The notes under the pieces were generated by a model. The model saw only the letters and a list, made by a program, of their open reading frames with translations, was not told the DNA's origin and made no database searches. 56,981 nucleotides of DNA from NCBI GenBank assembly GCA_045533555.1, contig JAZSHZ010000209.1:1-56981 (forward strand). Reading direction: 5' to 3'. This document shows positions 2,960-47,616 of this stretch, in pieces. Numbering within the stretch: the stretch's first letter is position 1; the number at the start of each line of letters is the position of its first letter. The stretch comes from Eubacteriales bacterium. GTDB taxonomy: Bacteria; Bacillota; Clostridia; Oscillospirales; JAAYXM01. A program made the position numbers and the translations under genes.

Positions 2960-3511
2960 TTATTTTACGAAATCGAGGATTCTTTGAATCAATACTGCGA
3001 CTTCGGCGCGTGTGGTGTTTGCCGTCGGGTAGATGAGAGCGTTTTTACCGTTTACAAGCTTTGCATTGACAAGTGCTGCTACTGAGTCTTTTGCATAGTC
3101 GGCTACCTTGTCATAATCGCTTGCCTGCGGGACGTCGAGGACGCCGTCCCCTACATTGAGTTTGTTCATTCCCACAAGTGCTCTGTAAACTATAACCATC
3201 ATATCCTGACGGGTGATATTGTTTCTCGGTGCGAATTTGTTCTCACCGATGCCGTTGACAAGACCTGTGTTGCGAGCTATCGCAAGCTCCTTTGCGAAGT
3301 AATCGGAAGATGAAACATCCGCGAAGTTTTCTTCACTCTCAGAAGCTAACTTAAATGCGCGGACAAGAAGTATTGCGAAGTCTGCGCGCGTGATGTTAGC
3401 TGCGGGTGAGAACGTATTCTCGCTTGTTCCCTTGATGATTCCTTCATCTGCAAGAGCATTGATAGCGTCTGCCGCCCAGGCATGATTTCCGAGGTCGATG
3501 AAGCGGACGTT
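2960..3511 (-). repeat. Dispersed SLH-anchor cassette, copy A (3' end of giant A)
   Basis: Encodes the three SLH repeats. It aligns without gaps to the 3' ends of the other three giants. For example, 3350-3511 versus 33874-34035 shows 14 mismatches in 162 nt by my manual count. Confidence 0.85.
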
Positions 3512-6500
3512 TGAATCAACATCCGGCGTTGTCGGTGTTGTCGGAGTTGTTGTTCCCGGTGTCTGCGGGACATCGTCCTTGTCATCTGCACCCGGAGTTG
3601 CCGGGATCGTCGGTTTGTCTGTCGGTGTGGACGGTGCGCTCGGTGGTCCTGCTCCGCCGCCACCGCCGCCGGTGGTTGAACCGTAAACCGTAACTATGAA
3701 GTGAATTGTGGATTCACGTCCGTGAGAGTCTGTTGCAGTCACTGCAAAATGGTTATTTCCGACCTGACTTGATGTTGGCTTCCATACAATCACACCTGTC
3801 GTCTCATCAAGAGTTGCACCACGAGGTATCTTCTCTCCACTGTATGTGACCGTTACGTCCTCAAGCTCGCTTGATGCATTGAGCTTTACAGTTATTGCGC
3901 TTCCCGCGCTTGTTGAAAGACCGTTCGGAACTGTATCAAATACAGGTGCATTATCATCACTTACCGAAAGCGGAATTATCGCTTCCTGACCTGCCGCTAT
4001 TGTATAGACATAGCCAAGTTCAGGCTGATACATATCGACATACTTTCTTATAAGAGTTGTTCTTCCGAGATTGAGAAGGATATTGTCGCCACTTCTCTCT
4101 GCCGATACAATCTTATACGCGCCGTCACGCATTCCCTCTTCGTTGTCGATAATAACAACGCGATTTGCGAGATCTGAAAGCTCTGCATCTGTCAGAGGCT
4201 CTTCTGTTGAAAGCTCAATAACATTTGAAGAAGCAAGCTCCTTCGTGAAATCTATAACTGTTCCAACAATCGCAGGCTTCTCGCCCGTTGCCTCTCCGAT
4301 GATATCACCGTCGAGAACATATTTATATGTATTCACGCCGTTTTCAACAGTATAAACTCCCACAAAACCACGGAAAGCAATTTCTGTATCGCCATCTGTT
4401 ACTGTATAAGTAACGTTATTATTTGTTGCATAGAAGACATAGTCAACTCTTCCGTCAGCAAGCTCTACTCTTACTGCACGGGCAGCATCGTTCTTCTTTT
4501 CCTTGCCGTCCGTTGCTGTCATTGCAAGCTCATCCGCCGACTTTAAGATACGATTTCCCTTATACGGTTCAAGGACCGTTGTGAATACAGTATCAAGCTC
4601 TTCGTTTTTGTTCTCATTTTCAATGAGGACATATTTGAGCTTGTCGATGTTTTTATTTGCAGCAACTCTCGGTGCATAACCATCGGTTATTGCTACATTA
4701 ACATCTGCACCTTCTGCCACGTTTGTTCCGTTGAGCATAGTCATGCGGAGATGGATATTCTTCGAATCCTTGACTGTCTTATTGAAGTCAGTGATTGCAA
4801 AGTCAATCTCAAACTTGTCTTCGGGATTTTCATCACGGTCAACATTTTCAAGCCAGGTAAATCCTATCGGATATTCGGTCTCATAATCCCATGAATTTGC
4901 GGTTTTGGGATCCTGTCCGTATTTTGTATCCTTGCCTGCGTATGTTCCGACATAGTTGCCTGCTTCATCTGCCTGCTTTACTGTTTCTATCCCTTCTGTT
5001 TCAGAGATTTCGTTGCTCTGTGCATGGAAACTGTAGATATGGCTGTTTCCTCCAAGGACTCTGAACAGATCAACATAATATGAATTTTCATCATCCACAT
5101 TGATCATTACAACACTTCTGCGATACGCCTCAGCTTCATCATAGACATAGCTTGTGTCAACATCTATTACCTGAACCTTATCTGCATCATCATAGTGCTT
5201 TACTTTACCGCGGATTTCAGAATTCTCCTCCTGCTTTTCACCGTTGACAACAACCGTGTTGTGTGAAAGAGTATTTCTTACCCACTGAATTCTGTTCGGG
5301 TCATTTCCCGTCTGCTCCGGATAACCGAGATCGGGAAGTATATTGAGGCCGAATGCCGTCATACCAATATTGAGGCTGTCAAGATGAGCGTGGCTGACAC
5401 CATTTGAGCCAAAATACATCCAGACATTTCTTGTTGTTTCACTGCTCGTTGCACTCGTCACATTATCCTCAAATCGGTGACCGTCACGGAGAATGGAGTA
5501 GCCAAATCCCGTCTGAATATCCGAGTCAAGTTCAATCTCGCCGTATTCATCAATAATTGCCTGAATCTCGTTTGCAAGGCTCTCAGGATTCTTTGTATAC
5601 ATATCATACTTGAGGTCTTCAACAGAATTTCCGTTAAGCATATAGAGATACTGTGCGAAAACGGGATCCTTAGTCTGTGTGTAAGCCGTCTTCATATGAC
5701 CTGCATTAGCCCAGTGAGAAATATCTGCGGTGTTTCCGCCGTCTCCTATCTGCGGAGAATAGCTGTTTGCAGCACGGAGCGGCATAAGTGCGAGGAACAT
5801 CTGCTGATATTTCGGATTTTCAGAGAGGTTTTCTTTTTTGTACTTATCATATCCGTTCAAAACATTGTTGACAAGGCTTACACCGCTGAGCCAGAGAAGT
5901 CCGTAGTCAGAAGCTTCGTTGCTATGACCGTCGGCACATATTTTCTCAATGAGAACTTCGTTTATTCCTCCGCCTACGACAGGAACATCTGTTGTCCAGC
6001 CGGGGGCAAAGAGATAATCAAGCCATTCTCCTGTTTCCGGGAAGGAATCAAGAATTACCGCCGCCATAGCCACATTTCGCTGTGACATACCGAAGTTACC
6101 GTGAATCTTTCTGTTGTATACTTCATCAAGGACTCCGCGTATAAAGTTATCTTCGACATTCTGGCGAATCTGCGCTGCTGTCTGCTTTGAATATCTGCTT
6201 GTATTGTTCTTTGCTATATAATCGATAACCTGAGAATCCTCATACATATCATATACCATATCATATGCAGGAACCTCGTTTGTGAGAATTGAGCATTCCC
6301 AGATGCAGCCGAGACGCTTGCCCTGGTTCGAACCGCCATCGGAGTTCCAGACATCATTTCCAAATGCCTTGATATCGTAGTCACGATAGAAATCCGCAAC
6401 TCGGTCAAGGAGGATTGCTGCTACACGTCCGTATTTCTTATCGCCGGTAAAGTAATATGCATAAGCACAGTTTGTGATTGCATTTGTAAGAACACCGCCG

Positions 6501-9500
6501 TTGTCTCCCGCCTTTGTCTGGAATACGCCATAATGCATAAATTCCGCGATATAGAGGTGTCTTTCCACAACGGTTCCGGACAGATATGCCTTGCCGTTTT
6601 CATCATACGGGACATATCCGTAGCCGTCATCAACTCCCCAGGTAGCTGTTGTCTCACCCGGACGGAGCCCCTGACCGCAGTTGATTGTGTCAACGTTTTC
6701 AAGGTTGGAATATAGCTTATTTACAAGATATCCGCCCTCTGCACCGTAGCCGTAATACTCCTTCCATTCCGCTGTTCCTTTAGTTGTCGGAGCAACGCAG
6801 TCACATTCAAGCTCTGCATCACCGTGGTGAATGAGGCTGTGGTGAGCATCAAGGGCATCCTGATATATAAATTCGCCGTATTCATTAAGACCGAGCTTAT
6901 AGAAGCTTTCGAAATCGTTGGACGGGAAATATCTGTCACATTCGGGGCACTGAATCTTCCACGGTCTGGTTATTGAATTATGTACCCACGGATAGTTACC
7001 ATACTTCTCCTGGAGATTCTCTCCACAGTAGCGGCAAGTGTACATATTCGGGTCTTTTTCTGCACCTACGGAGAAGCTTCTCGGAACCTCCTGAGATGCA
7101 ATGAGCGAATAAATCTCATCGAGCTTGTCAACATACTTATCGGCATTTTTTATGTATGTCTCGGCAGAGCTCTTTGCCCAATCATATTTTTTGATATTCT
7201 CTCTTGCAATTTCCTGCTTTTCAGCTGTCATATAGCTTGCTTCAGTCTTTGCCGTAACAACAGGAAGCTCAATGACCTTTGTGCGAATACGTCCGTCAAC
7301 CTTGACTGTTACCTCAAATCGGGCAGTTCCGTCTGCAACAGGCTCAATATAGTTTGCCCATTCACCGTTTTCATCCGGATACTGCTCATATGCTATTTTT
7401 GCAAATTCCGGAGTGAGTGCTGCAGCTGTTACCTCTGCATCCGTAAGATCAATATCGTTGCCGAGATTTGTTTTTGCGGAAACATAAAGCGGATATCTGT
7501 CTGTTGCATCGTCTGTAAGGCGTATTCTCGGGCTTCCGCCGCTTGTCGCCGTTATATCCGTCATTCCCTCGGGAAGAACCTCGACCTCGAAGCTCGTGCT
7601 CTTTGTTTCTCCGTTAAAGGTCGCAGTTGCTGTGATAGTCGTCTTTCCTACAGCGAGAGTTGTTATTGCGTTGCCGGATACGGTTGCGACGCTTTCATCG
7701 GAAGAAGAATATGTTATCGGTGCGTTTTCTTCACTGATAACTCTGCCGCTTTGAAGCTTTACTTCACCTTCAAGAAGCGCAATATCTCCAAGGAACACTT
7801 CATCTGCAACGGTCTTTGCAGTGACCGAAGCAATTGGGTCATTCACTACTTTTATCTTGACCGTTTCGGTTGTTTCCGTACCGCCAACGGTTACGGAAAG
7901 CGAAATCTCAGCCTCGCCTTCAGCCTTTCCGGTAAGCGTGAAGGGAAGCTTTCCGGTTTTGCCCATAGTGTAGGCCGCAAATCCCGAAACTCCAAGAACA
8001 TCGGAGGTCATCGAGCTTACTGATGCTGAATTTGCAGTATCTGCGCTTCCGTCGTTGTTTATACCGAAGTGAAGAGCCGAGCCGTCTGTCATGGCAGCAT
8101 AAACTGCACCCTGCACCGTTTCACCGACTGCTATCTCTTCGGGAAGCTCATATGCAATCTTTTCATAAACCGTTCCCGATTCTGCAACCGGGTCAAAGCT
8201 TATTGTTCCTACAACAAGAATTGCACCTGCGGAATAATGCTTTTCACGGGCTCTGAAGGATATCTTGTGTTCACCCTTCTCGAGATGCAATGTGTTAAGA
8301 GACTGCTCACCGTTATCGAACATAGCCGTAACCGACGGGTCATAGCAGTTGTAGTCACCTGCATACATATCATCAACGAATACAGAGAACTTTCCTCCCA
8401 AATTCCATACACCGCCATGAACCTTTAAATTGAAATCGTGTTCATAGGGAATGTCAACAAGAATCGTGATTGCATTGTTTGTGATTTTCGGAGTTGCCGG
8501 CCACATACCGCCGCGCAACCACATATATGCCGCCTTAAAGCCTGTGTTTGAGCAAGCGCCGAGACGCCACATTGTTGTGTCTGATTCTTCGCGCACCAGC
8601 GTATACCCCGGTGTTTTTGTCGGAGCAGGGCGATTACCCGAGCCGTCAGCACCATTATATTCACTCTGCGAGAAATCTACCGAAATAGTCGGGAAGGTTT
8701 CATAAACATTGAGTGTAAGCTTTCCTGATATTTTTGCACCGTCTTCGTTTTCAGCCTCTGCTGTTATGACGGTCATACCTGCCGCAATGGTTGCAACTTC
8801 GCCTGTTGCCTTATCAACCGTTGCTGCAGCAATGTTTGAGCTCTTATATGATACTGTATAACCGCTCATATCAGCAGCTATTCCGTCATTCATCATACCC
8901 TCAACGGTAATCTGCGCGGTATCTCCGGGAAGAAGAACGGATTTATCTGCCGAAAGTGTGATGCTTTCAAGCACAGGAGCAGCTTCAATTTCAATATCAA
9001 TACCTCCGATGACCTGCTTGCCTTCTGAAATTGCAGTCACCGTTATCTTTGCAGTACCCTTAGATACGCCTGTCACAACACCCGTTGTCTTATCAACGGT
9101 TGCGATGCTTTCATCGTAGCTTGCGAACGAAATTTCGGTTTCCTCTGTCCACTCGCTTTCGAGATTGCTTATAAGCTCATAAGAAACCTGCGCAGTTCTC
9201 GTTGCAGGAATGGTTTCTTTATCAACGAAAACCTTGACGGTCTGAAGCTCCGGAACCGGATATATCTTAATCGGAACCGTTTCTGTGTACGGTTCATTTC
9301 CGTCGGTGTTGACGGTAATTTTAATGTTTGTATCTCCGACTGTCTTCGCGTTTACCGTGAATGCAATATCGTTCTCGCTTTCAGGCTGAGCATACTTCAA
9401 ATCCGAAACGGTTGCGATGTTTTCATCTTCGATAATAACCGAAACGGTATTCTTCACATCTTCCGAAGCATTATCAGAAAGCCCGAAGCCGCGGTATGAA

Positions 9501-11665
9501 CCATCAGACATCTTGACCTTCGCCGCAACACTTTCAGCTCTTCCGACCGTGAGCTTTTCGCTTCCCGAAACTTCAACCTTTTCAACTTCGGGCTTGCTTT
9601 CAACAGGAGTGAATTCCATCCATATCGGAACAAAGTTCGGTGTTGCATAATGCTTTACTCTTGTGCGGAAGGAGATTTCGACATCACCTGCCGGTATATA
9701 AAGAGTATTGAGCTTTTTCTTTTCTCCGACTGAGAGAGCAGCACCCGTTTCGAAGAAATTATAGTCACCTGCATACTCGCCATTTACATAGACTGCAAAA
9801 TCGGAGCCTGCAGACCACTTATAGCCAAGCATTTCAATTGCATAGTAGCCCGCCGCGGAGAAATTCTTCCTGATGGTAAACATTGCTTCCTGCGAATCAG
9901 GCCTTGTCTGCCACGGGTCACCCGCAATCTGAATCTGCTGATACGGAAGAGCCATACCGTTTGCAAGTGTAACCGAGCTCTTGCGCGAGATACCCGTCGT
10001 CGTCTTTCCCGCAACAATATCAAATCCATATGTATTCCATGTTGAAGGAGCTGTCTTATCCTTGCCTATCGTGTGTGTGCCGTTGAGGTCAAGGCGCGTA
10101 TACGCGGGCTTCGTCTCATCAACGGGAGTGAGAGTGATTCCCGAAAGAAGGAACATCTGATATGTCGTCGAGCTTCTGTACCAGCTCTTCGCATTTTTCG
10201 CGATGGCATCCTTGTCTATATCAAAGAAGAGATAATACTCGCCCGCCTTCGGAACGTCAATATAACCGATATCCGATATATACGGAGCATCTGCGCTCGT
10301 TGCGAGGTTATTGACATCATAATAGCCAACTTCATCGGCAACGGTTACGAAATCACCAAACAGTGCGCCATTTGTTACGCCACCGCTTGAAGCTTTGTTT
10401 GTTATTGCAAAGTTTGCGTTTCCAAAATAAACCTTTGCGACGGTACCTTTATCGAAAGAACCCTTAACCGCACCGTTTTTTTGTTCTCCGAGCGAAACAA
10501 CACCCGCGACCACCGGATGCGACTTTGTGAATGCATTTGATGCCGAGAGCCTGAATCTGCCGCCATAAGGCACATTGAGCTTTATCGCAACCCATGGATG
10601 TGCCGCATAGTCTGCGCTCTCATAAGAATTCCCCGCGCTGTCGGTTGCAATTTTAAGCTGCGTTGCATAGCCTGCATCCTTGATTGAAGGACCATTATCC
10701 ATAGGCATACGTCCGACTATTTCATAGCCTTCCGTTTTTGCCGGGTCGAGCATCGGAGCAACGCCGGAAATCTTTTCCTTATAGCTTACATACATAAGCT
10801 CGAGGTTATCAATTTCCGAGCCTGCCGTTGCCGCAGTGGATGCCTGACGGGAAGCATAGTTTGCTATTGCATCCTCGTGGTATGCACCCGGAGTAATATT
10901 ATACGAAAGGGTCGGCTTTTCGCTTATAGCTTGCTCCGAAAGAGAGAAGGAGCGAAGCTTGAGCGTTATGAAATATCTGTTTGCTGTTGTGTATATATCC
11001 TTTTTGATATTTGCATTTGCACCATTCAGAAGAAGAACGAGATAATATTTCTTCGAAGCATCAACCGAAACCTTAGAAAAGCTTACTGTTTTAAGCTCAC
11101 CATTTCCGTATGCATCGAATGAGCCTATTTTAGTTGTTGCCGCCTTTGCAGCTACGTTGTTTCTGATAGCCTTGTTTCCCCATGCAATCGTCGGACACTG
11201 CCACGTGCTTGCAGGAGCTTCAAAGAAAAGAACATCATATTTTCCGCCCGAATTCTCGGTGAGAAAGCTTATATTCGGGACAAAGCTTCCCGTTTTGCTT
11301 GGCTGAATCTCGAAGACAACCGTTCTGACAGTTGCCTGCGTGCCGTCAAAATCCGCGGAAGTTCCGTCAGCTAAATTAATTGTCCACAGGAAATTGTTGA
11401 TATCGGCGGAAACAGTTGATCCCGACGCCTGGTTAACAAATCCCCATTTGCTCGAAACTCCTGTTTTTGTTGAATCAAGAGCGGCATTTGTTCCAAGCGT
11501 TGTGCTGTTATACATCGCCGTCAATGCCGAATATCCGTGCGACGGAGCCGTGAACAGATATTCGTCAACGATGGTGTTCTCTGCCGCAGATGCAAAGAGA
11601 GTCATTGTCGGAAGCATCGAAATGACCATTGCAAGGGCGAGAACAATCGATAAAATTCTCTTCAT
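2960..11665 (-). CDS. Giant SLH-anchored surface protein A (2,901 aa): signal peptide, four CBM-like modules, Big_2 Ig repeats, Cys4 ribbon plus heparinase II/III-like core, He_PIG Ig domain, 3x SLH
   Basis: Uninterrupted 8.7-kb ORF. SD AAAGGAGGA (11672-11680). Signal peptide MKRILSIVLALAMVISMLPTMTLFASA. Big_2-like ...IATVD..TG.VT....GTA.ITVTA... repeats. Core motifs YYFTGDKKYGRVAAILLDRVADF and SHAHLDSLNIGMTAFGLNILPDLGYPE...LSHNTVVVNG. He_PIG-like IPRGATLDETTGVIVWKPTSSQVGNNHFAVTATD. C-terminal FIDLGNHAWAADAINALADEGIIKG (SLH). Confidence 0.95.
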   Translation of the reverse strand: MKRILSIVLALAMVISMLPTMTLFASAAENTIVDEYLFTAPSHGYSALTAMYNSTTLGTNAALDSTKTGVSSKWGFVNQASGSTVSADINNFLWTINLADGTSADFDGTQATVRTVVFEIQPSKTGSFVPNISFLTENSGGKYDVLFFEAPASTWQCPTIAWGNKAIRNNVAAKAATTKIGSFDAYGNGELKTVSFSKVSVDASKKYYLVLLLNGANANIKKDIYTTANRYFITLKLRSFSLSEQAISEKPTLSYNITPGAYHEDAIANYASRQASTAATAGSEIDNLELMYVSYKEKISGVAPMLDPAKTEGYEIVGRMPMDNGPSIKDAGYATQLKIATDSAGNSYESADYAAHPWVAIKLNVPYGGRFRLSASNAFTKSHPVVAGVVSLGEQKNGAVKGSFDKGTVAKVYFGNANFAITNKASSGGVTNGALFGDFVTVADEVGYYDVNNLATSADAPYISDIGYIDVPKAGEYYLFFDIDKDAIAKNAKSWYRSSTTYQMFLLSGITLTPVDETKPAYTRLDLNGTHTIGKDKTAPSTWNTYGFDIVAGKTTTGISRKSSVTLANGMALPYQQIQIAGDPWQTRPDSQEAMFTIRKNFSAAGYYAIEMLGYKWSAGSDFAVYVNGEYAGDYNFFETGAALSVGEKKKLNTLYIPAGDVEISFRTRVKHYATPNFVPIWMEFTPVESKPEVEKVEVSGSEKLTVGRAESVAAKVKMSDGSYRGFGLSDNASEDVKNTVSVIIEDENIATVSDLKYAQPESENDIAFTVNAKTVGDTNIKITVNTDGNEPYTETVPIKIYPVPELQTVKVFVDKETIPATRTAQVSYELISNLESEWTEETEISFASYDESIATVDKTTGVVTGVSKGTAKITVTAISEGKQVIGGIDIEIEAAPVLESITLSADKSVLLPGDTAQITVEGMMNDGIAADMSGYTVSYKSSNIAAATVDKATGEVATIAAGMTVITAEAENEDGAKISGKLTLNVYETFPTISVDFSQSEYNGADGSGNRPAPTKTPGYTLVREESDTTMWRLGACSNTGFKAAYMWLRGGMWPATPKITNNAITILVDIPYEHDFNLKVHGGVWNLGGKFSVFVDDMYAGDYNCYDPSVTAMFDNGEQSLNTLHLEKGEHKISFRAREKHYSAGAILVVGTISFDPVAESGTVYEKIAYELPEEIAVGETVQGAVYAAMTDGSALHFGINNDGSADTANSASVSSMTSDVLGVSGFAAYTMGKTGKLPFTLTGKAEGEAEISLSVTVGGTETTETVKIKVVNDPIASVTAKTVADEVFLGDIALLEGEVKLQSGRVISEENAPITYSSSDESVATVSGNAITTLAVGKTTITATATFNGETKSTSFEVEVLPEGMTDITATSGGSPRIRLTDDATDRYPLYVSAKTNLGNDIDLTDAEVTAAALTPEFAKIAYEQYPDENGEWANYIEPVADGTARFEVTVKVDGRIRTKVIELPVVTAKTEASYMTAEKQEIARENIKKYDWAKSSAETYIKNADKYVDKLDEIYSLIASQEVPRSFSVGAEKDPNMYTCRYCGENLQEKYGNYPWVHNSITRPWKIQCPECDRYFPSNDFESFYKLGLNEYGEFIYQDALDAHHSLIHHGDAELECDCVAPTTKGTAEWKEYYGYGAEGGYLVNKLYSNLENVDTINCGQGLRPGETTATWGVDDGYGYVPYDENGKAYLSGTVVERHLYIAEFMHYGVFQTKAGDNGGVLTNAITNCAYAYYFTGDKKYGRVAAILLDRVADFYRDYDIKAFGNDVWNSDGGSNQGKRLGCIWECSILTNEVPAYDMVYDMYEDSQVIDYIAKNNTSRYSKQTAAQIRQNVEDNFIRGVLDEVYNRKIHGNFGMSQRNVAMAAVILDSFPETGEWLDYLFAPGWTTDVPVVGGGINEVLIEKICADGHSNEASDYGLLWLSGVSLVNNVLNGYDKYKKENLSENPKYQQMFLALMPLRAANSYSPQIGDGGNTADISHWANAGHMKTAYTQTKDPVFAQYLYMLNGNSVEDLKYDMYTKNPESLANEIQAIIDEYGEIELDSDIQTGFGYSILRDGHRFEDNVTSATSSETTRNVWMYFGSNGVSHAHLDSLNIGMTAFGLNILPDLGYPEQTGNDPNRIQWVRNTLSHNTVVVNGEKQEENSEIRGKVKHYDDADKVQVIDVDTSYVYDEAEAYRRSVVMINVDDENSYYVDLFRVLGGNSHIYSFHAQSNEISETEGIETVKQADEAGNYVGTYAGKDTKYGQDPKTANSWDYETEYPIGFTWLENVDRDENPEDKFEIDFAITDFNKTVKDSKNIHLRMTMLNGTNVAEGADVNVAITDGYAPRVAANKNIDKLKYVLIENENKNEELDTVFTTVLEPYKGNRILKSADELAMTATDGKEKKNDAARAVRVELADGRVDYVFYATNNNVTYTVTDGDTEIAFRGFVGVYTVENGVNTYKYVLDGDIIGEATGEKPAIVGTVIDFTKELASSNVIELSTEEPLTDAELSDLANRVVIIDNEEGMRDGAYKIVSAERSGDNILLNLGRTTLIRKYVDMYQPELGYVYTIAAGQEAIIPLSVSDDNAPVFDTVPNGLSTSAGSAITVKLNASSELEDVTVTYSGEKIPRGATLDETTGVIVWKPTSSQVGNNHFAVTATDSHGRESTIHFIVTVYGSTTGGGGGGAGPPSAPSTPTDKPTIPATPGADDKDDVPQTPGTTTPTTPTTPDVDSNVRFIDLGNHAWAADAINALADEGIIKGTSENTFSPAANITRADFAILLVRAFKLASESEENFADVSSSDYFAKELAIARNTGLVNGIGENKFAPRNNITRQDMMVIVYRALVGMNKLNVGDGVLDVPQASDYDKVADYAKDSVAALVNAKLVNGKNALIYPTANTTRAEVAVLIQRILDFVK
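4995..7240 (-). other. Heparinase II/III-like (polysaccharide-lyase fold) core of giant A, with Cys4 insert at 6938-7036
   Basis: Runs from ASYMTAEKQEIARENIKKYDWAK through the TGD.KYG toroid motif to FGYSILRDG...VSHAHLDSLNIG...PDLGYPE...RIQWVRNTLSHNTVVVNG...FRVLGGNSHIYSFHAQ. The H.H.D / PDLGYP / SHNT pattern matches my memory of the Hepar_II_III family. Confidence 0.7.
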
Positions 11666-11691
11666 AAAAGTTCCTCCTTTAGTGCATTATA

Positions 11692-11712
11692 GGGGAAGAA
11701 AAAATCTTCCCC
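11692..11712 (-). promoter_or_regulatory. Intercistronic stem-loop between the partner gene and giant A
   Basis: 8-bp GC-rich stem ggggaaga/tcttcccc with a 5-nt loop, in the 58-nt gap between the stop at 11724 and the start at 11665. No U-tract follows on the coding (minus) strand. It may be an mRNA processing or stability element, or a weak attenuator. Confidence 0.4.
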
Positions 11713-11723
11713 AATTTTCGCAT

Positions 11724-14306
11724 TTATTTGCTATATATCACATTACCGTTTGAAAGGATTGCATAACCGATTGCTTCACCGCTTACGTCATCGATTACGG
11801 AGAAGGTGTCTCCCTCTGTTTTCATCGAGATCTTGTGAGTTGCATTGTCGATATCCGTTCCGAAAAGGATTCCCTTTTCGACGACATCGGAAATTCCGAT
11901 AAATTCCGCAACTGCGGCGGTTTCTCCACCGACAAGTCTCGTTCCGAGAATAATCTTTCTCACTGTCTTTGCAACCGGAGTATAGTCGTTATAAACGGCC
12001 GTTACGGTCGTGTCCTTCCAAGCCTTGAAGCTGTAAGAAAGATCAAAGCTTACTATTTCTCCGTCGCGCTCCCAGTAGTTGAAGAGCTGCATTCCCGTGT
12101 TATTCTTGCGAGCGGGTGCAGTCACGGTTACCGTTTCACCATATGCCGGTGTCGCATTATCTGCAGTTCCGCCGATTACCGTTATCTCAAAGCTTTCGGA
12201 GGGCTCGTCCGAATATTCCGCAACGAAGCGCATAAGCTTTCCGCTTGCCCTGACTTCATCATCTGCGGTATAAGTCTCGCCGTCCGCATCAAGTGTCCAG
12301 CCCGTTGCAGTATCAAAGCCTGCAAGGCTCGGAAGCGCAGGAAGCATTATCGCATCGTTTTCATTATATTGACTGCGGGAGATTTCATCTCCGTTCGCAT
12401 TATAGAAGATGACATCCGTCTCTGCCGAGTTGTTATCCGCATACACTGCAGTAAGCCACATAGGACCTTTTTCAGCTTTGACGGAAAGCTTTGCATCATA
12501 AGAAGCGATCTTCTTGAATTCGCCCATACCCTGCGCCCAATAGAGGAAGGTATATCCCTCTTTTTCGGGAGCGGTATATGTAATATCGGAGCCTGCTGCG
12601 ACATCATCTGTGTCAAGAACACTGTTATCTGCTCCGCAGAGGATTTTTACATTTGATGTTGTGCTTGCCGGAGCTTTTTCCGTTGCATTGCCGGGGTTGA
12701 CGTTTGTAATGGAATCGTATTCAGCTTGTACTTTTTCTTGTTCTGTGTCTTCAACAAGCTTCAGCTCTACTCCCGAAAGAAGGAATAATTGACGGAACAC
12801 ACTGTTTCTTGATACAAACCAACACTTTTCGTTCTCAAGCGAGGACATATCAAATACAAGAATATATTCTCCCGGTTCAGTAGCCGTTACAGTTCCGAGC
12901 ATCGTCTTTGCAGGAGTTTCGGCATCTGTTGCAAGTACATTTGAATCATATATTCCAAGATATTCATAATTTTTGTAAACCTCGGCAAACGCAGCCAAAT
13001 TATTTACGGTTCCCGTTGACTTATATGTGAAATTGAAGCCATTTGCCTTTCCGAAATATGTCTTCACCTTTACACCTTCGTCAAATACACTTGCATCTGC
13101 ACCATTCGCCTGTGTTGAAGTCTTTTTCAAGCTCATTATCGTGTCTGAATCAGCTGTAAATCTATTTACTACGGAAAGCTCATATTCCCCTGCATACGGT
13201 ATGTTCAATTTTAGCATATATTGAGGTCTGGTTGCAATCGTTGTTCCCTCATAGTTTTTTGCCGTCCACTCTGTTGCAGACGTTCCTTTTCCGATATTGA
13301 ATTGTGTATGAACACCGATATCTTCAAGAACAAGTGCATTGTCATAACCGCTTCTTCCGTAAAGCTCAAATCCATCCGTCTTGTTTGCATCGAGTGCAGG
13401 ATTCTTGTCAAGCTTGCTCTTCCAACTTATATACTGATGTTCCAAGTTATCAATTACGCCGGAAGAAGTTGCGTTCGTACTTTCCTGCAACGAACCGAAA
13501 TCCGTTATTGCCGTTGAAGAAAGTGCATTAGTTGATATATCATAATTATAATATGCCTCTTTTGCATCGGGAGTTTCAGAAAGCATAAATGACTTCAAAT
13601 CCAAAGAACCAACATATCTCGAATCCAAATATTCCGTTGTCCAACCATCAGACGCGCCATTTGGTAAAATGACGAGATAATAATTTCCCGGTTGTACATC
13701 ATATCTTCGGAAAGATGCAGTTTTTATCTCAACCGACTCTCCGTATGCATCAATCATGCCAAGGCGCTGTTCCGGATGAGCAACGACATGATTAAACACA
13801 GCCTGACGTCTTGTTCTTGATGTTGTGCTCGTCCAACCTGCTGGATTTGTTATTGAAGACTTTTCTACTAAATAAACATCGTTTCTCATACCCGAGGACG
13901 ATGTTTTATATGTGATACTGGGAACAACATCGCCGGCAACATCAACTACCAGTTCAAGTATTAAGCCCGAACTTAATTTAGTGTTGTCCACGGCATCGAA
14001 CGCCTCAGGTCTTGCATTTTGGTCAGACGTCGAAACAAGGTGACGTAATCTTATATATTCATATCCAAGATCTCTTTTGTTTGCGCTCAAATCATTCACA
14101 TATGCCCACTTATCACCGACAACGGTTGCATCAAGCGAACAATCAGCTGTCGTCATGGAGATAAATGTCGTTTTGTCTGCTTCCAGTCCATGAGATGCGG
14201 CAGTGAAAATATATTCGTTATAGTCGCCATCCCCTGCCGCGAAGCTCATCGGCATTATTCCGACAATCATTGCACACGCAAGAATAATTGATAAAATTCT
14301 CTTCAT
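11724..14306 (-). CDS. Secreted partner protein A' (860 aa): two CBM-like modules paralogous to the N-terminus of giant A, InlB-B-repeat-like units, conserved C-terminal tail, no SLH
   Basis: Signal peptide MKRILSIILACAMIVGIMPMSFAA and SD GGGAGG (14315-14320). Collinear motif matches to giant A include EYIFTAASHG, IDNLEHQYISWKSKL, YMLKLNIPYAGEYELS and QLFLLSGVELKLVED. GYTFLYWAQG and LFNYWERDG repeats are present. Confidence 0.9.
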   Translation of the reverse strand: MKRILSIILACAMIVGIMPMSFAAGDGDYNEYIFTAASHGLEADKTTFISMTTADCSLDATVVGDKWAYVNDLSANKRDLGYEYIRLRHLVSTSDQNARPEAFDAVDNTKLSSGLILELVVDVAGDVVPSITYKTSSSGMRNDVYLVEKSSITNPAGWTSTTSRTRRQAVFNHVVAHPEQRLGMIDAYGESVEIKTASFRRYDVQPGNYYLVILPNGASDGWTTEYLDSRYVGSLDLKSFMLSETPDAKEAYYNYDISTNALSSTAITDFGSLQESTNATSSGVIDNLEHQYISWKSKLDKNPALDANKTDGFELYGRSGYDNALVLEDIGVHTQFNIGKGTSATEWTAKNYEGTTIATRPQYMLKLNIPYAGEYELSVVNRFTADSDTIMSLKKTSTQANGADASVFDEGVKVKTYFGKANGFNFTYKSTGTVNNLAAFAEVYKNYEYLGIYDSNVLATDAETPAKTMLGTVTATEPGEYILVFDMSSLENEKCWFVSRNSVFRQLFLLSGVELKLVEDTEQEKVQAEYDSITNVNPGNATEKAPASTTSNVKILCGADNSVLDTDDVAAGSDITYTAPEKEGYTFLYWAQGMGEFKKIASYDAKLSVKAEKGPMWLTAVYADNNSAETDVIFYNANGDEISRSQYNENDAIMLPALPSLAGFDTATGWTLDADGETYTADDEVRASGKLMRFVAEYSDEPSESFEITVIGGTADNATPAYGETVTVTAPARKNNTGMQLFNYWERDGEIVSFDLSYSFKAWKDTTVTAVYNDYTPVAKTVRKIILGTRLVGGETAAVAEFIGISDVVEKGILFGTDIDNATHKISMKTEGDTFSVIDDVSGEAIGYAILSNGNVIYSK

Positions 14307-14348: not shown

Positions 14349-15230
14349 TCATTGAGAACTTTTTATACGCTTTAAATATTCGCTTGGTGAAATTCCCACT
14401 CGTTTTGAAAAGGTAACCGAAAAATGCCCTTGTGAACGGAAAGAGAGATAATCCGCTATCTGCGTGAAATTGAGCGAGCTTTCTTCGATAAGCTGCTTTG
14501 CGCGCTCAATCTTCATATCAAGAAAATAATCCATTATCGCAAAATCGTATTTCTTTTTGAATTCGCGGCAGATATACGGAACACTTAGTGAAAGCTCCTC
14601 CGATATCCGTTCAAGCGTTACCCGCTCCGGAAGATGCGCCTTGAGATATTCAAGAACGTTCTCCGCAACAGACAGCCTTATCGGGATGAAATCCTCCTCA
14701 GTAAGAGTTCCGAGCTGAGCCTCGATCAACTTGATGCAGAATATTTCAAAGCGGTTTTTGAGCATCTGAATTTTTCCTCGCGAAACACCTTCGCGGATTT
14801 TACAACCCAGATTTGTCGCATCGCGCGAAATCGGCACAAAGCACATTGCACCTTCGGACGAAAAATCACTGAGCACCTTTCCGTCATCCTCACTGATATC
14901 TATCGGACGTGAGCAAAGCGAAAGAAGCTCTTTTTCGCGAAGAACGGAAAATCCGATAACATAGCACAGAAGCTCATCCGTCCGCTCGACAAGCATATGC
15001 GATGCATTCGGCGGAATGATTATAAGCTGCCCTTCTCCGAGAGTCACGTTTTCTCCATTGACAGAGTTGGTTCTTTTTCCTTTTCTGACATACTGAAGCT
15101 CGAAGAAATTATGTCTCTCCGGCGGATATATCATCGGATAATTATTTTGACTGCTGTCATTGAAAAAAGCAAATTTATCAACCGCAAAGAAATTCACTAT
15201 GTCATTTCTTCTATACATTGTTTTTTCCAT
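14349..15230 (-). CDS. AraC/XylS family transcriptional regulator (cupin plus HTH), cassette A
   Basis: C-terminal AraC HTH region (...LERISEELSLSVPYICREFKKKYDF...FTQIADYLSFRSQGHFSVTFSKRVGISPSEY) and an N-terminal cupin-like sensor. I chose the ATG at 15228-15230 (MEKTMYRRN) over the GTG at 15272, which has no SD. The ATG at 15218 is an alternative. Confidence 0.85.
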   Translation of the reverse strand: MEKTMYRRNDIVNFFAVDKFAFFNDSSQNNYPMIYPPERHNFFELQYVRKGKRTNSVNGENVTLGEGQLIIIPPNASHMLVERTDELLCYVIGFSVLREKELLSLCSRPIDISEDDGKVLSDFSSEGAMCFVPISRDATNLGCKIREGVSRGKIQMLKNRFEIFCIKLIEAQLGTLTEEDFIPIRLSVAENVLEYLKAHLPERVTLERISEELSLSVPYICREFKKKYDFAIMDYFLDMKIERAKQLIEESSLNFTQIADYLSFRSQGHFSVTFSKRVGISPSEYLKRIKSSQ

Positions 15231-15276
15231 ATGCTCACCACATCGCTTAATATAATGGTAACAATTATACACGATA

Positions 15277-18333: not shown

Positions 18334-19060
18334 CTACTTTACGAAATCGAGGATTCGCTGAATCAGAACTGCGGCTTTCGCGCGTACTGTGATTGCCTGC
18401 GGGCCAATAAGACCGTTCTTGCCGTTTACAAGCTTTGCATTGACAAGTGCCGATACTGCTTCTTTTGCATAGTCTGCGACTTGGTCAAAGTCGGGAGCTT
18501 GCGGGACGTCGAGGACGCCGTCCCCTACATTGATTTTGTTCATTCCCACAAGTGCTCTGTAGACGATTACCATCATATCCTGACGGGTGATGTTGCTCTT
18601 CGGTGCGAATTTATTCTCACCGATGCCGTTGACAACACCTGTGTTGCGGGCTACCGCAAGTTCTTTTGCAAAGTAGTCGGAAGCGGAAACATCCGCGAAG
18701 TTTTCTTCGCTCTCGGATGCTAACTTAAATTCGCGGACGAGGAGGATTGCGAAGTCTGCGCGTGTTATGTTAGCCGCGGGCGAGAATGTATTCTCGCTCG
18801 TTCCCTTTATGATTCCTTCATCTGCAAGAGCATTGATAGCGTCAGCCGCCCAATCGTGAGCACCGAGGTCAATAAAGCGGACGTTTCCGGCTCCCTCTCC
18901 GAGGGAGCCGTCGGCATCGCCGACTGAGGGAGTTTTATCTACATTGTCTGTGGAGGACATTGAATCATCCTTATCCTCCGGCTTTGTTGCGGGGATGGTC
19001 GGTGTGCTTGTTCCCGGTGTCGAGGGTGCGCCGGAGCTTCCGCCGCCACCGCCTGTGGTT
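18334..19060 (-). repeat. Dispersed SLH-anchor plus linker cassette, copy B
   Basis: The 3' end encoding SLH x3 is near-identical at nucleotide level to copies A, C and D. The linker part (tccggctccctctccgagggagc.gtcggcatcgccgactgagggagttttatc) is shared with C and D but not A. Confidence 0.85.
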
Positions 19061-22000
19061 GCACCGTAGACATCGACATAGAAATGTATTGTTTCCTGTC
19101 TTCCATATTCATCAATTGCAGTAACCGCGAAATGGTTCTTTCCTATCTGCGAGCTTGTCGGCTTCCAGACGATTTTGCCTGTTTCCGCATCGATGCTTGC
19201 TCCGCGCGGCAACATCGCCGCTTCATAGGTTATCGCGGGTGCATTTTCCTCTATCGGGCTTCTTGCTTTGATATCGACTACTATCTGACTTCCTGCCGTT
19301 GTCGAAAGCTTCTCACCTACTGCATCGAATATCGGCTTGAAGTTTTCCGCTTCCGTGAGCGGAATTCTTGCAGGCTGATTCTTTTCTATGATATAGATAT
19401 ATCCCTTATCCATATCATATTCATCCTTATATCTGCGAACCGTCGTGACATCACCGACATTGAGTCTGATATCGTTTCCGCTGCGCTCGGCGCTCTTTAT
19501 CTGCCATGCACCGCTTCGGTTTTCTACTCCGTTGTCAACAAAGACATATTTTCCGGGAAGATTTGCTAAAACATCATCGGAAACTTCGCTATCCGGAGTT
19601 ATCGAAATAAAGTTCTCAAACGCAAGCTCTTCCGTGAACGAGGAAACAGTTCCCTCAATTGATGCCGTTTTTCCCGTTTCCTCTCCGAGAATATCACCGT
19701 CGTGGAGATATTTATAGGTATTTATGCCGTTTGCAACCGTCCATACACCGAGGAAGCCGCGGAACTTGAGTGTGCTTCTGTCATCAAGCGTTATCTCATA
19801 TGTTACCTTATTGTTCGTTGACCAGAGAACATAATCGACTCTGCCGTTCTCGTGTTCAACACGTACTGCGCGGTGGTCATCATCCGCACCTTCTGCAACA
19901 TCGCCTGCGACGCGCATCTCAATTTCATCGGAATTCTTAAGATAACGGTTATGGCGGTAAGGCTCAAGAACCGTTGTGAATGTCGTGTCGAGATTCTTTC
20001 CTTCGTTCTTTATAAGGACATACTTGAATTTGTCAATCGCCTTATTTGCTGCCTTATCCGGCGGATAACCGTCCGCAATTGAGATCTCCGCATCTGCACC
20101 GTTCTTTACGTTGCTGTCATTGAGCACTGTCATATGGAGGTGGAGACCCGTTCCGTCCATCAGGCTCTTTCTGAAATCCTTTATTGCAAAATCAATTTCA
20201 ACGCGATTTTCGGGATCCGTGTCGCGGTCAACATTCTTAAGCCAGGTATATCCGCGCGGGAATATCGTTTCATATGTCCACTGGTTCGGAGAATTCGGGT
20301 CATTGCCGTATTCCGCTTCGAGGACGACTTCGTTCTCACCGAGAACCGCATCCTCTGTATATCTGCGGACAGCGCCCGTTTCCGTATCCTTGATATACTT
20401 TGCATTTCTGCCTGCGTATGTTCCCTTGTAGTTTCCGTTTTCATCAAGCTGTGAGCCCGAAATATAATTTCCGTTTTCATCCTCAATGAGGGTGAAATCA
20501 AGGCCGACAGTCTCTGCAATTTCGTTTGATGCGGCATGGAATGAATAGAGCTGCTTATTTCCGCCGAGAACTCGGAAGAAGTCTATCACATATGAATTCT
20601 CGTCATCAACGTGAACCATGACAACGCTTCTGCGATATTCGCTTACGCTGTCATTGACGTAAGGTGCGGAAACATCCATTACCTGAACATCCTCGCCATA
20701 GTCAAAGTGGAGTGATTCGCCTCGGGGCTCATCGGGAGCACTCGTTTCCTTGTCATCAACGATGACAACGTTATGCGAAATCGATCTTCCGACCCACTGG
20801 AGACGGTTCGGCGTGTAGCTCGTTTCCTCCGGATATCCGAGATCGGGGAGGAGTTCGAGCCCGAATGCAGTCATTCCGAGTCCGAGATTATCGTTATGCG
20901 CATGGCCATCACTTGTTCCGAAATACATCCATGCATTTCTTGTCGTATCGATCGAGTTCTGATTGTTTGTGCCCTTATATTCGCCGCCATCGCGAAGAAT
21001 TGCATAGCCGAAGTTTGTCATTGCCTCGGATGTGCGGACGAGAGTTCCGTGATTGTCAATAACCGTCTGAACTTCTTTTGCAAGGCGCTCCGGATCACGA
21101 GTATAGATATTATAGTGAAGTCCCGTGCTCTTATTGCCGTTTATGAGATAGAGCATCTGCGCGAAAACGGGGTCACCAAGTCTTGAGAAGCCCTGAATGA
21201 GCTGGTTCTGCTCATACCACTGACTCGAGGTCATCGTCGAGAACGTATCGCCGATATTTACCGAGTGGTTACCCGTTACAAGCGGAAGGTTACTGTAGAA
21301 CATTTTGACGAATTTCGGGTTGTTATAGAGGCTTGCTGCCGAATAGCCGTCATAACCGTCGAGAACCTCCTGAACGCTGATGAGCGTCGTGTGCCAGTCC
21401 GCATTATATTCCGAACCTTCGTTACCCTGACCGTCCGCGTCAACCTCGTCTACAAGACGTGTGCTGATACCGCCACCGTCGCTTCTGCCATTTCTACCCC
21501 AGCCCGGAGCCATAAGATAGTCAAGCCAGTATTTCGTGTCAGGCATTGTGTCGAGGACAACTGCCGCAAGCGCATTCGTTCTCTGCGGATAACCGAAGTT
21601 ACCTGCGATCTTGCAATCGGGAAGCGCATTGAGTACGCCGCGGAGGATTCCGTCTTCGACATTCGTTCTTATCTGCGAAGCCGTTTTCTTCGAATGGCGC
21701 ATCTTGATCGTTTCCGCTTTTTTGCTGATATAATTTACGACAAACGGATCATCATAGCAATCGAAGACCATATCATATGCTTCGATATATTTATTCATCT
21801 GAGTTCCTTCCCAGATGTTGCCGAGGATTTTTCCCTTTCCTGTTCCGCCGTCGGAATGGGTTACATTGTTGCCCCATATCGAGCGGTCAAAATCGGGATA
21901 GAAGTCTGCCATACGGTCAAGAAGTATTGCCGCGGCCTGACCGTATTTCTTCTCGCCGGTGAAGAAATATGCGTTTGCAAGATAGGAGATCGCATTCTGT

Positions 22001-25000
22001 ATCGCGCCGCCGCTTCCGCCGTCTCCGCGCCAGAGACCATAGTGGCTGTATTCCGCGATATATGTGTGTCTTTCTGCGCGGTTGTCATTCTTATAGTATG
22101 TTCCGTCGAGCTTTCTCGGAACATAACCGTGGCCGTCATCGACGCCCCACGTTTCCGTCGTCTCGCCCTCGCGGAGACCCTGATTTGCATTGAGAGTCTT
22201 GACATCCTCAAGATTATCATAGAGCTTATTTACGAGATATCCGTTCTTATCACCGTAGCCATAGTAGGGATACCATTCCGTTGTCCATTCGTTTTCCGGC
22301 GCGACGCATTCGCATTCAGCATTCGCATCGCCGTGGTGAACGAGCGCATGGTGCTTTGTAAGCGCGCGCATTCTGTCAAACTCGCCGTATTCGTTGAGTC
22401 CGAGCTTATAGAACGAGCCGAAATCATTTGTCGGGAAGTTTCTTCCGCAATCGGGGCAGATTATCTTCCATTCATTCACGAGCGAGTTATGCTTCCACGG
22501 ATATGTTCCGTATTTCGCAGTAATCTTGACTCCGCAATAGCGGCAATATCCATTATAAGGATCACTCTTTGCTCCGACGCCCGAGCTTCGCGGAACGCCC
22601 TCGGAGTGGATCATATTATAGAGCTGATCAAGTCTTTCGACATAGCGATCGGCTTTCTTGACGTTTGATTCAACTTCTTTTTTCGCCCACGAATATGTTG
22701 AATAATTTTCCCTTGCAGCTTCCGCTTTTTCCGCTGTCATATAGGATGAGCGGCTCTTGCCCCATACTACGGGAAGAGTTACATCACGCGAAATCGTTCT
22801 TCCGCTGTGGGTTGCGGTTATGCGGAAGATCGCATCACCTTCGGCAATCGGGAGTATTTCATTATCACCGATTATCTGCGCCTTATCGGGCGTGAGGCAT
22901 TCCGTCGTGAAGGTAAGCTCATCGGGGTCAAATTCGTTTCCGAGGTTCGTGAACGCTCTGACATAGAGCGGCACCGTGTCATTTTCCTTATCCGTCAGGC
23001 GGATATATTTGCTTCCGCCCGCGGTTGCGGCGATCTCGTTTATTCCTTCGGGAATAACCTCAAGATCAATATGGGATTCGACACACTCGCTGCTTCCGTT
23101 GATATGAGCTTTGGCGGTTATGCGGACATTTCCCGCCTTCTTTGCCTTGATATTCATTCCGTCAATCTCAGCAACTTCCTCATTTCCGGAGGAGAGCTCC
23201 GTTATGACCGCAGGGGTGTTGAACTCAGTTCCGTCGGAAAGCTTCGGTATCGCGGTTATCTTAACGGTGTCACCCTCAAATATCTCCTCCTGCGAGACCT
23301 TCGTCTCAACGGAGGTAAGCGCAAGCTTCGGAAGCGGATAGAATCCGAAGTTGTTTATATTGACATAGAGGTGATTCTTATAGTTTACACTGCCGTTTGA
23401 AATATTGAAGTTTTCAGGTCCCTGAAGAGCCTCATTGAGGCCGTTACATTGCCAGATGAGATAATACTCACCCGCAGTATCAACCGTTATATTCTCAAAG
23501 CTTTCCGTCTTCGTCTCGCGCACGGTGCTGTACATATCGTGCTTTGCGATGAGATATTCCTCCTTGTCCGGAAGAGCTTTGAGCATCTTTGCGACATTTG
23601 CCGCCGTTGTGAGATCGGGGTATGAGCTTGCATCGACAACGGATTTCGGGATGAGATACGTGTCAAAGATACAAAGTGTATTTTTCGTATCATAGGTTAT
23701 TGCCGGTGTGAACGTTCCTGTTCTGTTTATCTTGATGAGCGCCGCAACGGTAATGTCCTGACGCGCGGTATATGTTCCGCCCTCAAATGTTCCGTTTTCA
23801 GAATCGACGGTTGCACCCATATATCTCGCGGCACGGTAACCATAGGCATGCCACGTGAGTGAATGCGGGAGAGAATTTGAGCCCGACGAAGAGCTCGTTA
23901 CCTTCTCGCTTCCCGTTACGGAGAGCCAATACTGAAGGTTTGCACCGCTGACGATCTGCCACGGATCGGTGTTATATTCCGCATATCCGAGAGTCGGAAG
24001 CTTTGCCTTCACTATTTCCTCGTTCAAATCATAGCTGCTTGCGCTGAAGTTATAGACGAGGCCATCAAGCTCGCGCCTTACCTCCACGGGGACGGAAAGC
24101 ACTATCGGATCGCCGTTTTCGTTTGTTGCGGATGCGGAAACGGTTGTCTTACCGACAGCGACCGCCGCCATATTTCCGTTTTCATCAACAGTTACGACGG
24201 AATCGTCTCCGCTCTGATAGCTTACTTCATAATTTGCGATATCGCCCGCTTTTCCGTTTGACATAATTGCGGAAATGCCGATCGCTGCGGAGCTGTTGTT
24301 TTCATCGTTTTCAAAGAAAACGAAATTCGGCTTTGCCGCCTTGAAGCTTTCAAGATAGGGCTTGCCTTCAACGATAATATCGACCGAGTCGGATACATTG
24401 CTTCCCTTGACGGTTGCCGTTATAGTCGCATTACCTTTTGCGATTGCGGTTACAACGCCATCCTTATCGACGGTTGCGATATTATCATCGGAGGATTTAT
24501 ATTCAATTTCATATTCACCTGTCGGGATATCTCCGTTTGAGAGCCACATTTCGACAGATGAAGTTGCGCTTCCTCCCTCGGAGAGCGTCGTTTCGCTGAG
24601 CGTAAGCTCAAGCTTTCCGATTTCGGGGCGCGCGATCGCACCCTTATGGTGGAGGTCGAATGAATAGAGGTTGACATATATTGCAGGTCCGTTTGCATTT
24701 TCATATTTTGCCGCAAGCTTTTCATTGAGACCGTTTGAAAAGAAGAAGAGGACATATTCGCCTGCCTTCTCAACAACATAGTCATCAAGGAAGCTCGTCT
24801 TTGTTCCTGCAGTCTCGCCGTACATATCAACGTTGCCAATAAAATAATTCGTGATTCCCGGGCGAACCGTTGATGAAAGCGCCGAATTCGCAAACTTGAG
24901 GCGGTTTCTGTAGTTTCCGATAAGCTCGCTCCACGGAACGAGATAGACCTCATAAATGCAGAGGTCGGGGCGTGCATGATATGTAACCGTCGGGATGAAT

Positions 25001-25431: not shown

Positions 25432-25451
25432 TCGTTTCATCCTTTCCATTC

Positions 25452-47553: not shown

Positions 47554-47586
47554 TCTTTTTCCTCCAAACGCCCTTGATTATGGGAT

Positions 47587-47613
47587 AAAAAGCCTCTCGG
47601 GGAGAGGCTTTTT
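47587..47613 (-). terminator. Rho-independent terminator between partner C' and giant D (possibly leaky)
   Basis: Minus-strand reading aaaaagcctctc-ccc-gagaggcttttt followed by atccc: an 8-bp GC-rich stem extended by A:U pairs, a 3-nt loop and U5. It lies in the 63-nt gap between the stop at 47617 and the start at 47553. I found no convincing promoter for giant D downstream of it. Confidence 0.65.
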
Positions 47614-47616
47614 ATA

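Follow-up and report, generated by a model that had tools for sequence, protein, structure and literature searches.

The 57-kb contig JAZSHZ010000209.1 from an uncultured gut Oscillospiraceae bacterium, which was analysed over its whole length and is called the window here, carries genes for three apparently secreted, non-catalytic proteins (the partners partA, partB and partC) and for four very large proteins with surface-layer homology (SLH) repeats (giantA, giantB, giantC1 and giantC2). In the reading which we favour with moderate confidence, at somewhat better than even chances, partner and giant form a co-inherited pair of a secreted glycan-binding protein and a wall-anchored, PL17-like polysaccharide lyase, both bearing modules of the same subfamilies. 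The homology of the two proteins, the fold class of their modules, the gene order, the conservation of the pair across species and a fusion of the partner tail with a lyase core are established in our study and form the basis of this reading.

All of the pertinent genes lie on the minus strand in the list of open reading frames (ORFs) of the window. Cluster A has the order 693-aa (amino acid) protein, AraC regulator, partA and giantA; cluster B consists of partB followed by giantB; and cluster C has the order AraC, GH127, partC, giantC2 and giantC1. The initial annotation of this DNA had described each giant as preceded by a smaller partner, but there are four giants and not three, and giantC1 comes after giantC2 and not after a partner. 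Partner and giant are tightly spaced (2-63 nucleotides, nt); the gaps given earlier for A (58 nt) and C (63 nt) are correct, whereas the 20 nt given for B applies only with the third in-frame ATG and becomes 2 nt with the first ATG. The genes and modules are as follows.

11724..14306, minus strand: partA, a secreted, non-catalytic partner of 860 aa with signal peptide, M1, M2 and tail
13521-14234, minus strand: alpha module M1 of partA (aa 25-262)
12732-13520, minus strand: beta module M2 of partA (aa 263-525)
11727-12671, minus strand: tail of partA (aa 546-860), three InlB-B-repeat-like units and an immunoglobulin (Ig)/FN3-like C-terminal domain
2960..11665, minus strand: giantA, 2901 aa, with signal peptide, four modules, Big_2, core, He_PIG and three SLH repeats
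10880-11581, minus strand: alpha module M1 of giantA (aa 29-262)
10100-10879, minus strand: beta module M2 of giantA (aa 263-522)
9560-10093, minus strand: delta module M3 of giantA (aa 525-702), followed by Big_2
8141-8680, minus strand: delta module M4 of giantA (aa 996-1175), followed by the lyase-like core (~1400 aa)
25452..27209, minus strand: partB, 585 aa, with signal peptide, alpha M1 and partner tail (aa 291-585)
26358-27131, minus strand: alpha module M1 of partB (aa 27-284)
18334..25449, minus strand: giantB, 2371 aa, with alpha M1, Big_2, alpha M2, lyase-like core, He_PIG and SLH
24577-25341, minus strand: alpha module M1 of giantB (aa 37-291)
23281-24075, minus strand: alpha module M2 of giantB (aa 459-723)
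47617..50391, minus strand: partC, a chimeric partner of 924 aa (919 aa if the second Met is the start)
from 49627, minus strand: gamma module M1 of partC with Big_2 (aa 38-318)
48892-49431, minus strand: delta module M2 of partC (aa 321-500), followed by a Big_2-like domain
aa 613-924 of partC, minus strand: partner tail
40519..47553, minus strand: giantC2, 2344 aa, with three gamma modules, lyase-like core, He_PIG and SLH, adjoining partC
33484..40497, minus strand: giantC1, 2337 aa, with three gamma modules
38971-39618, minus strand: gamma module 2 of giantC1 (aa 294-509), closest to partC M1 among the giant modules

The similarity between partners and giants is real and far beyond chance. 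In BLASTP comparisons, residues 1-522 of partA matched residues 1-519 of giantA with 35% identity (E 1e-73), residues 1-267 of partB matched residues 12-266 of giantB with 41% identity (E 1e-48) and residues 41-314 of partC matched residues 297-560 of giantC1 with 43% identity (E 3e-60). The match of partC to the adjacent giantC2 has 29% identity (E 1e-19), and residues 325-608 of partC match residues 528-799 of giantA (35% identity, E 6e-38). All of the strings quoted in the initial annotation were found in the translations, and the collinearity of the N-terminal modules of partA with giantA which it had described was borne out, residues 29-522 of giantA corresponding to window positions 10100-11581. 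Its proposal that partB mirrors the first module of giantB also agrees with the BLASTP match and with the trees, in which the two M1 modules are sisters (bootstrap 97). For partC, a similar proposal stood in part: M1 resembles a module of the distal giantC1, but the identity to the adjacent giantC2 is low and M2 is giantA-like.

In the first trees, which were limited to modules from the window and from the first loci (later trees were sampled more widely), partA M2 was found as sister to giantA M2 with bootstrap 100 and partA M1 as sister to giantA M1 with bootstrap 60. For partC, M1 has giantC1 M2 as its sister (bootstrap 100). The nearest relative and sister of partC M2 is module 3 of giantA, which lies 36 kb off (35-53% identity, bootstrap 80), and neither giantC1 nor giantC2 has a counterpart of this second partC module.

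Four module families, named alpha, beta, gamma and delta, were resolved by iterated hidden Markov models (HMMs). In the window they comprise the following modules.

Alpha family: partA M1, giantA M1, partB M1, giantB M1 and M2
Beta family: partA M2 and giantA M2
Gamma family: partC M1 and three modules in each C giant
Delta family: partC M2, giantA M3 and M4

The alpha, beta and gamma HMMs match one another and the delta family is tied in by hhalign (95%, E 4e-8); a strand motif '..IxVP.AG.Y.L..' and a late 'GEYxLxF' strand recur in all of the families. An AlphaFold2 model of partA M1, made from a 17-sequence alignment, has a predicted local distance difference test (pLDDT) score of 66, with 85-91 in the beta core. 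Foldseek matched this model to CBM36, CBM6, CBM35, CBM61 and MiXBM (E 6e-5 to 1e-3, probability 0.99-1.0), and the matches include alginate- or porphyran-binding carbohydrate-binding modules (CBMs) at E about 1e-4. Weak sequence matches to the same CBM structures were obtained with the delta profile, and the partA sequence itself gave no match in the PDB. On the structural model of partA M1 and the profile comparison, the modules are of the CBM6/35/36-type beta-jelly-roll (galactose-binding-like) fold class, and because they resemble binding modules of this type, a glycan-binding role is a reasonable prediction for them.

Searching for homologues by word index, with partA and with the alignment of the alpha modules as queries, gave hardly any matches; hence an exhaustive HMMER search and a scan of genome contigs were used instead. 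The module superfamily was found by exhaustive HMMER to contain 665 clusters at 50% identity, 414 of them at E<=1e-10, with 2-14 module copies per member. Most of these proteins are giants or are of partner size. Among the best 150 of the 665 clusters, the giant core is present in 72, the partner tail in 27 and neither in 51. The last group includes proteins of ~2100-2400 aa with 5-6 module copies (P0023, P0081, P0043 and P0115), a separate class which is essentially without Pfam domains.

The pairs were also found in other species. In locus L035, the genes for a 687-aa protein, AraC, a cyclase, a partner and the giant P0028 follow one another, which parallels cluster A. In L036 the partner P0110, 68% identical to partB, is followed by a giant 80% identical to giantB, and in L039 AraC, GH127 and a partner are followed straight after by a C1-type giant with no C2 between. 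This C1-type giant (L039 12713-19690) is split into ORFs of 1213 and 1025 aa, by a frameshift or pseudogene formation or by an assembly error. At the B locus, the partner-versus-giant identity is ~40% in all four cross-species combinations, and hence the B paralogy is older than speciation with no concerted evolution since. Concerted evolution, considered as the first alpha tree grouped by genome, is rejected for B on this ground, and for A the sister relation within the window dissolves with wider sampling: the alpha-beta tandem of giantA groups with that of giant P0028 (bootstrap 100) and, one node further out, with a protein of partner size (82). The direction of copying in the A type looks, if anything, to be from partner to giant. 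Each partner module had been expected to be sister to the module of its neighbouring giant; this was seen for partB/giantB and partA/giantA in the first trees, and the A pairing did not persist in the wider ones. In the case of partC, the alignment to its orthologue P0038 is confined to M1 (57% identity) and the tail (44%); what lies between differs, and partC has a delta module where P0038 has a second gamma module. Judged by these module affinities, partC is a recombinant which has kept a C1-related gamma head. As far as the sequences can tell, partner and giant are ancient paralogues which have been passed on as a pair, with modules swapped now and then, and are not recent copies.

The different parts of the proteins have diverged to different extents. 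Between the window and L035, the A locus is 70% identical in the partner tail, 70% in the giant core, 51-62% in the giant modules and 31-33% in the partner modules, and the identity of the A-type partner drops abruptly at about residue 525, where modules and tail meet. The B partner, compared with L036, shows like rates in module (67%) and tail (69%). The tail identity between species is thus 70% for A and 69% for B, and it is 44% for C. The giants also evolve fastest in their N-terminal modules. The heads of the A-type partners may be hypervariable or may have been replaced as a cassette.

The partner tail is homologous across the partners and consists of three InlB-B-repeat-like units and an end domain of ~80 aa. 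The initial annotation had given the partners such units, a common tail and no SLH, and this is supported by the Flg_new/Flg_new_2 matches (Flg_new_2 scores of 24.4 bits for partA, 29.0 for partB and 46.6 for partC; Pfam cutoff 23.6) and by the three SLH repeats of the giants, which have no match in the partners. A model of residues 690-860 of partA (third repeat and end domain; pLDDT 83.5) predicts tandem Ig/FN3-like sandwiches. The sole hydrophobic segment in the partners is the N-terminal signal peptide; no C-terminal transmembrane segment, sortase motif or lipobox-type signal was found in their sequences, the signal peptide of partB having no Cys, so that lipoprotein, sortase or transmembrane anchoring is rejected. 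No Pfam match to dockerin or cohesin was found in partners or giants. The possibility that the partners are truncated giant pseudogenes is likewise rejected, as the tail is kept at 44-70% identity between species, the ORFs are intact and orthologues exist.

A scan of genome contigs with the tail profile identified 29 loci, all in metagenome-assembled genomes of uncultured Oscillospiraceae, Clostridia or Eubacteriales and mostly from goat and cattle hindgut. A partner is directly followed by a giant at nine independent places (three in the window and one each in L007, L008, L011, L014, L015 and L034). One solitary partner, P0002 (1062 aa; L001 / L002), has two beta-type modules; its neighbours are an HTH_3 regulator and a Mannitol_dh-family (hexuronate-type) oxidoreductase, and it was assembled from the metagenome samples that also yielded the B-type pair of L036/L037.

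A link between tail and giant was found in P0056 (2343 aa; L040 8001-15032), which has three gamma modules and a lyase core followed by the partner tail. The tail stands where other giants have He_PIG and SLH; P0056 has no SLH and no upstream partner gene. This protein would tie partner and giant functionally in the Rosetta-stone manner, and because it bears the tail in place of He_PIG and SLH, the tail probably serves the same purpose as SLH, as a module for docking or for retention at the surface. Such a role weakens the earlier suggestion that the partner is an anchor-less, free scout, which is now doubtful.

The giants are built from a signal peptide, variable N-terminal modules, Big_2, a shared core, He_PIG and three SLH repeats (Pfam E 1e-25 to 1e-29). 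The shared core of ~1400-1600 aa is 43-53% identical between the giants and matches Hepar_II_III_C with 26-38.6 bits (Pfam cutoff 24). A profile of the four cores matched PL17 alginate lyases in the PDB (E 2e-6 to 8e-6), where no close solved relative of the core was found. The giants are probably wall-anchored polysaccharide lyases of a PL17-like kind, as judged from these profile matches. Also invariant in the cores is a cluster of four Cys residues (C..RYCG .... C.P.C.R; window 7004-7093, giantA aa about 1525-1554), which is zinc-ribbon-like, has a faint match to the PyrI_C metal-binding Pfam family only and is unusual in a PL17-like lyase.

Two of the gaps between partner and giant in the window contain a hairpin, both of which were missed by a consensus terminator scan.

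11692..11712, minus strand: stem-loop with an 8-bp GGGGAAGA stem, right after the partA stop and upstream of the giantA ribosome-binding site
47585..47615, minus strand: intrinsic-terminator-like hairpin with a 14-bp stem bordered by A and U tracts, in the gap from partC to giantC2

The stem-loop of cluster A has a folding energy of -18.4 kcal/mol (z -3.1), and L035 has a hairpin of other sequence in the same place (-21.9 kcal/mol). The hairpin of cluster C has -22.2 kcal/mol (z -3.07), and no such hairpin is present in the gap between giantC2 and giantC1. As only the A-type loci and the C locus of the window have one, an attenuator hairpin as a general feature of the partner-giant gap is rejected. 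Expression of the partner above the giant is possible at some loci and would not be general.

In the favoured reading of a co-inherited binder and lyase, the partners would be Sec-secreted, non-catalytic surface proteins in which variable CBM6/35/36-like heads are carried on a constant tail, and the three of them would head operons in this genome whose next genes encode the SLH-anchored, PL17-like giants. The modules of the partner would recognise uronate-containing polysaccharides of the class to which the modules of the lyase itself also bind. Its constant tail would keep the partner attached to the cell surface or to the giant, and the pair would capture the polymer and feed it to the wall-bound lyase. 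A bolder version is possible but doubtful. In it, the tail is a new docking module, interchangeable with He_PIG and SLH, which mounts exchangeable, fast-evolving CBM-like heads beside the giant lyase; the result would be a two-component system of glycan capture and cleavage, independent of cohesin and dockerin and confined to uncultured gut Oscillospiraceae, with the heads swapped or diversified to track substrate variants.

Several observations weigh against a binder and lyase acting on one substrate. Concerning the fold and function of the parts, no Pfam CBM family was found above threshold for partA M1, partA M2, partB M1 or partC M1: the first three gave zero Pfam CBM matches, and partC M1 gave a weak CBM_35 match (E 0.066) of 14 bits, below the cutoff of 28. 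The confidence of the partA M1 model is moderate and its TM-scores are low (0.25-0.36 on the query); the tail model gave only generic Ig/FN3 matches in Foldseek and no specific known anchor, and the anchoring role of the tail draws on one fusion protein, P0056. A hairpin is lacking in most of the gaps between partner and giant, the other pairs having gaps of 18-33 nt with no structure. Within the pairs, partner and giant are 35-48% identical, so that the fine specificity could differ. Moreover, partA is not nearer to giantA, being ~30-35% identical to giantA, P0028 and other alpha-beta tandems alike; together with the ~40% in the four combinations at the B locus, this contradicts the initial idea that a partner copies its giant's own modules. 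The partner modules of L014 and L015 form their own clade, apart from the modules of the adjacent giant. The rule of cognate pairs holds only in part, as it breaks down in L014 and L015 and to some degree for partC; the similarity of neighbours as first described stands for A and B in the window. Further, ~12 partner genes (about half of the family) have no adjoining giant, e.g. in L032 and L001, which tells against the matched pairs with a common ligand proposed earlier, whereas the same-subfamily modules and the recurrence of the pairs speak for them.

These last points are also what would be expected if the arrangement were a by-product of module shuffling, in which one fast-evolving paralogous expansion has placed partners next to giants by tandem duplication and recombination without any functional coupling. 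The chimeric partC, with a gamma module akin to giantC1 and a delta module akin to giantA, the many solitary partners, the L014 and L015 partners that are not sister to their neighbouring giants, the uniform ~30-35% identity among alpha-beta tandems and the large superfamily with its 2-14 copies per member all fit such a history. However, the partner-then-giant order and the module subfamilies of A, B and C are kept across species, the intact ORFs and the 44-70% identity of the tails imply purifying selection on the unit, and the spacing of 2-63 nt and the fusion of a giant core with the partner tail in P0056 also point to coupling; pure shuffling is therefore considered unlikely.

The conserved tail without a known anchor fold, its replacement of He_PIG and SLH in P0056 and the first position of the partner gene followed by a stem-loop, as with abundant structural components, could alternatively mean that the partner is a structural subunit or adaptor and not a glycan binder. 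Its modules or tail would then contact the giant, the S-layer or the cell wall directly, through homotypic beta-sandwich contacts, as an assembly chaperone or in displaying the giant. We regard this as rather improbable, as the module fold best matches carbohydrate-binding modules, and partner modules of 31-33% identity beside a tail of 70% in the A type are hard to square with a conserved interface to giant modules of 51-62%. The same steep difference (~32% against 70%, with its abrupt boundary at ~residue 525) and the fast evolution of the N-terminal modules of the giants would suit adhesins for mucus or host glycans, or decoys which diversify under host or phage pressure, the link to the lyase being shared surface display only. 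The equal rates of module and tail in the B partner (67% and 69%) and the carbohydrate catabolism setting argue otherwise, and there is little probability in this explanation.

That setting was recognised from Pfam matches in the window to GH127, GH20 and AraC regulators, the last of which are placed as follows.

14349..15272, minus strand: AraC-family regulator (Pfam), immediately 5' of partA
29174-30208 and 52411-53202: AraC genes of the B and C clusters (Pfam)

Some further genes in the neighbourhood were observed. The 693-aa protein (15353-17434, minus strand), upstream of the AraC gene and partA, is without a Pfam match and 50% identical to its L035 counterpart; the B-type locus L036 has a 683-aa gene with a weak GLMA_2nd match, and the 693-aa protein may be an uncharacterised glycosidase of the partner/giant system. 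A 213-aa ORF (17576-18217, plus strand) downstream of giantB occupies the position that a Cyclase (PF04199) gene of likewise 213 aa has in L036, and L035 has a cyclase gene too, placed after AraC and before the partner. Between clusters B and C lies a gene for a 495-aa secreted SLH protein (31867-33354, plus strand) with no further recognised domain, whose neighbours are PHP, C26 peptidase and GH20 genes. Ceramidase_alk genes (neutral/alkaline ceramidase-like) are found at L035 1-1134, 22572-23912 and 25090-26412 and at L039 2947-4305, and FGGY kinase and amidohydrolase genes also flank the orthologous A and C loci (L035, L039); these neighbours may hint at the substrate or the pathway.

Our literature searches found no description of this partner/giant architecture, and it is best understood in comparison to known systems. 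SusD is an alpha-helical, TPR-like lipoprotein which is paired with the TonB-dependent transporter SusC in the Gram-negative outer membrane. The partners resemble SusD and the SusE/F-type surface glycan-binding proteins (SGBPs) as a functional analogy only, in that a non-catalytic glycan binder (the binding being predicted here) goes with an endo-acting surface enzyme and a local regulator. They differ from SusD in their predicted beta-sandwich fold, a Sec signal without lipobox and an SLH-anchoring envelope. No transporter gene was found among the ORFs of the 57-kb contig by the ORF list and Pfam (L039, the orthologous C locus, does contain an SBP_bac_1 gene). The SusD comparison is functional only, and the locus, with its lyase-like giants, GH127, GH20 and AraC regulators, would not be a canonical Gram-positive polysaccharide utilisation locus. 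The analogy to SusD and SGBPs drawn in the initial annotation may therefore be retained at the functional level, though not for transporter or lipobox.

Sas6 of Ruminococcus bromii (CBM26 and CBM74) is a non-catalytic amylosome protein (bioRxiv 10.1101/2022.11.20.514607). Like the partners, it is secreted and non-catalytic, has binding modules of the kind found on degradative enzymes, is proposed to hold substrate at the surface and belongs to the same broad clade (Oscillospiraceae/Ruminococcaceae). However, Sas6 docks by a dockerin to cohesins, whereas in the partners none was detected and the constant part is an InlB-B-repeat and Ig-like tail. Moreover, the gene of the partner immediately precedes that of the enzyme, and the partner modules are direct paralogues of those of that enzyme and belong to an uncharacterised family. 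The predicted beta-jelly-roll core of the partner module is shared with CBM6, CBM35 and CBM36, but the window modules are larger (200-260 aa as against about 125 aa), with long insertions. SLH-anchored multimodular carbohydrate-active enzymes of Firmicutes are known, e.g. Paenibacillus ChiW and the Caldicellulosiruptor SLH xylanases (PMC5132251, PMC6556019). Like these, the giants have a signal peptide, multiple accessory modules, a catalytic core and, at the C-terminus, three SLH repeats; they differ in the Hepar_II_III_C/PL17-like core and in the dedicated, paralogous, non-catalytic partner alongside. By analogy, the pair would work like an SGBP with its enzyme or like the Sas6-type arrangement, and it would be a member of neither, as it has no lipoprotein/SusC component and no dockerin or cohesin.

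The retention of polysaccharides at the surface is far less understood in Gram-positive gut bacteria than in Bacteroidota. Three findings of our study had not been described: a module superfamily of 665 clusters which no Pfam family covers; a family of partner proteins that share a constant tail; and, in uncultured Oscillospiraceae of the ruminant gut, a conserved operon of partner and very large, wall-anchored lyases of a PL17-like kind. If the predicted binding is true, the modules would represent new CBM families and the tail a candidate new surface-attachment module, and the pair would be a Gram-positive counterpart of the cooperation between SGBP and enzyme. The hypervariable partner heads would then give a handle on the evolution of substrate range in these bacteria.

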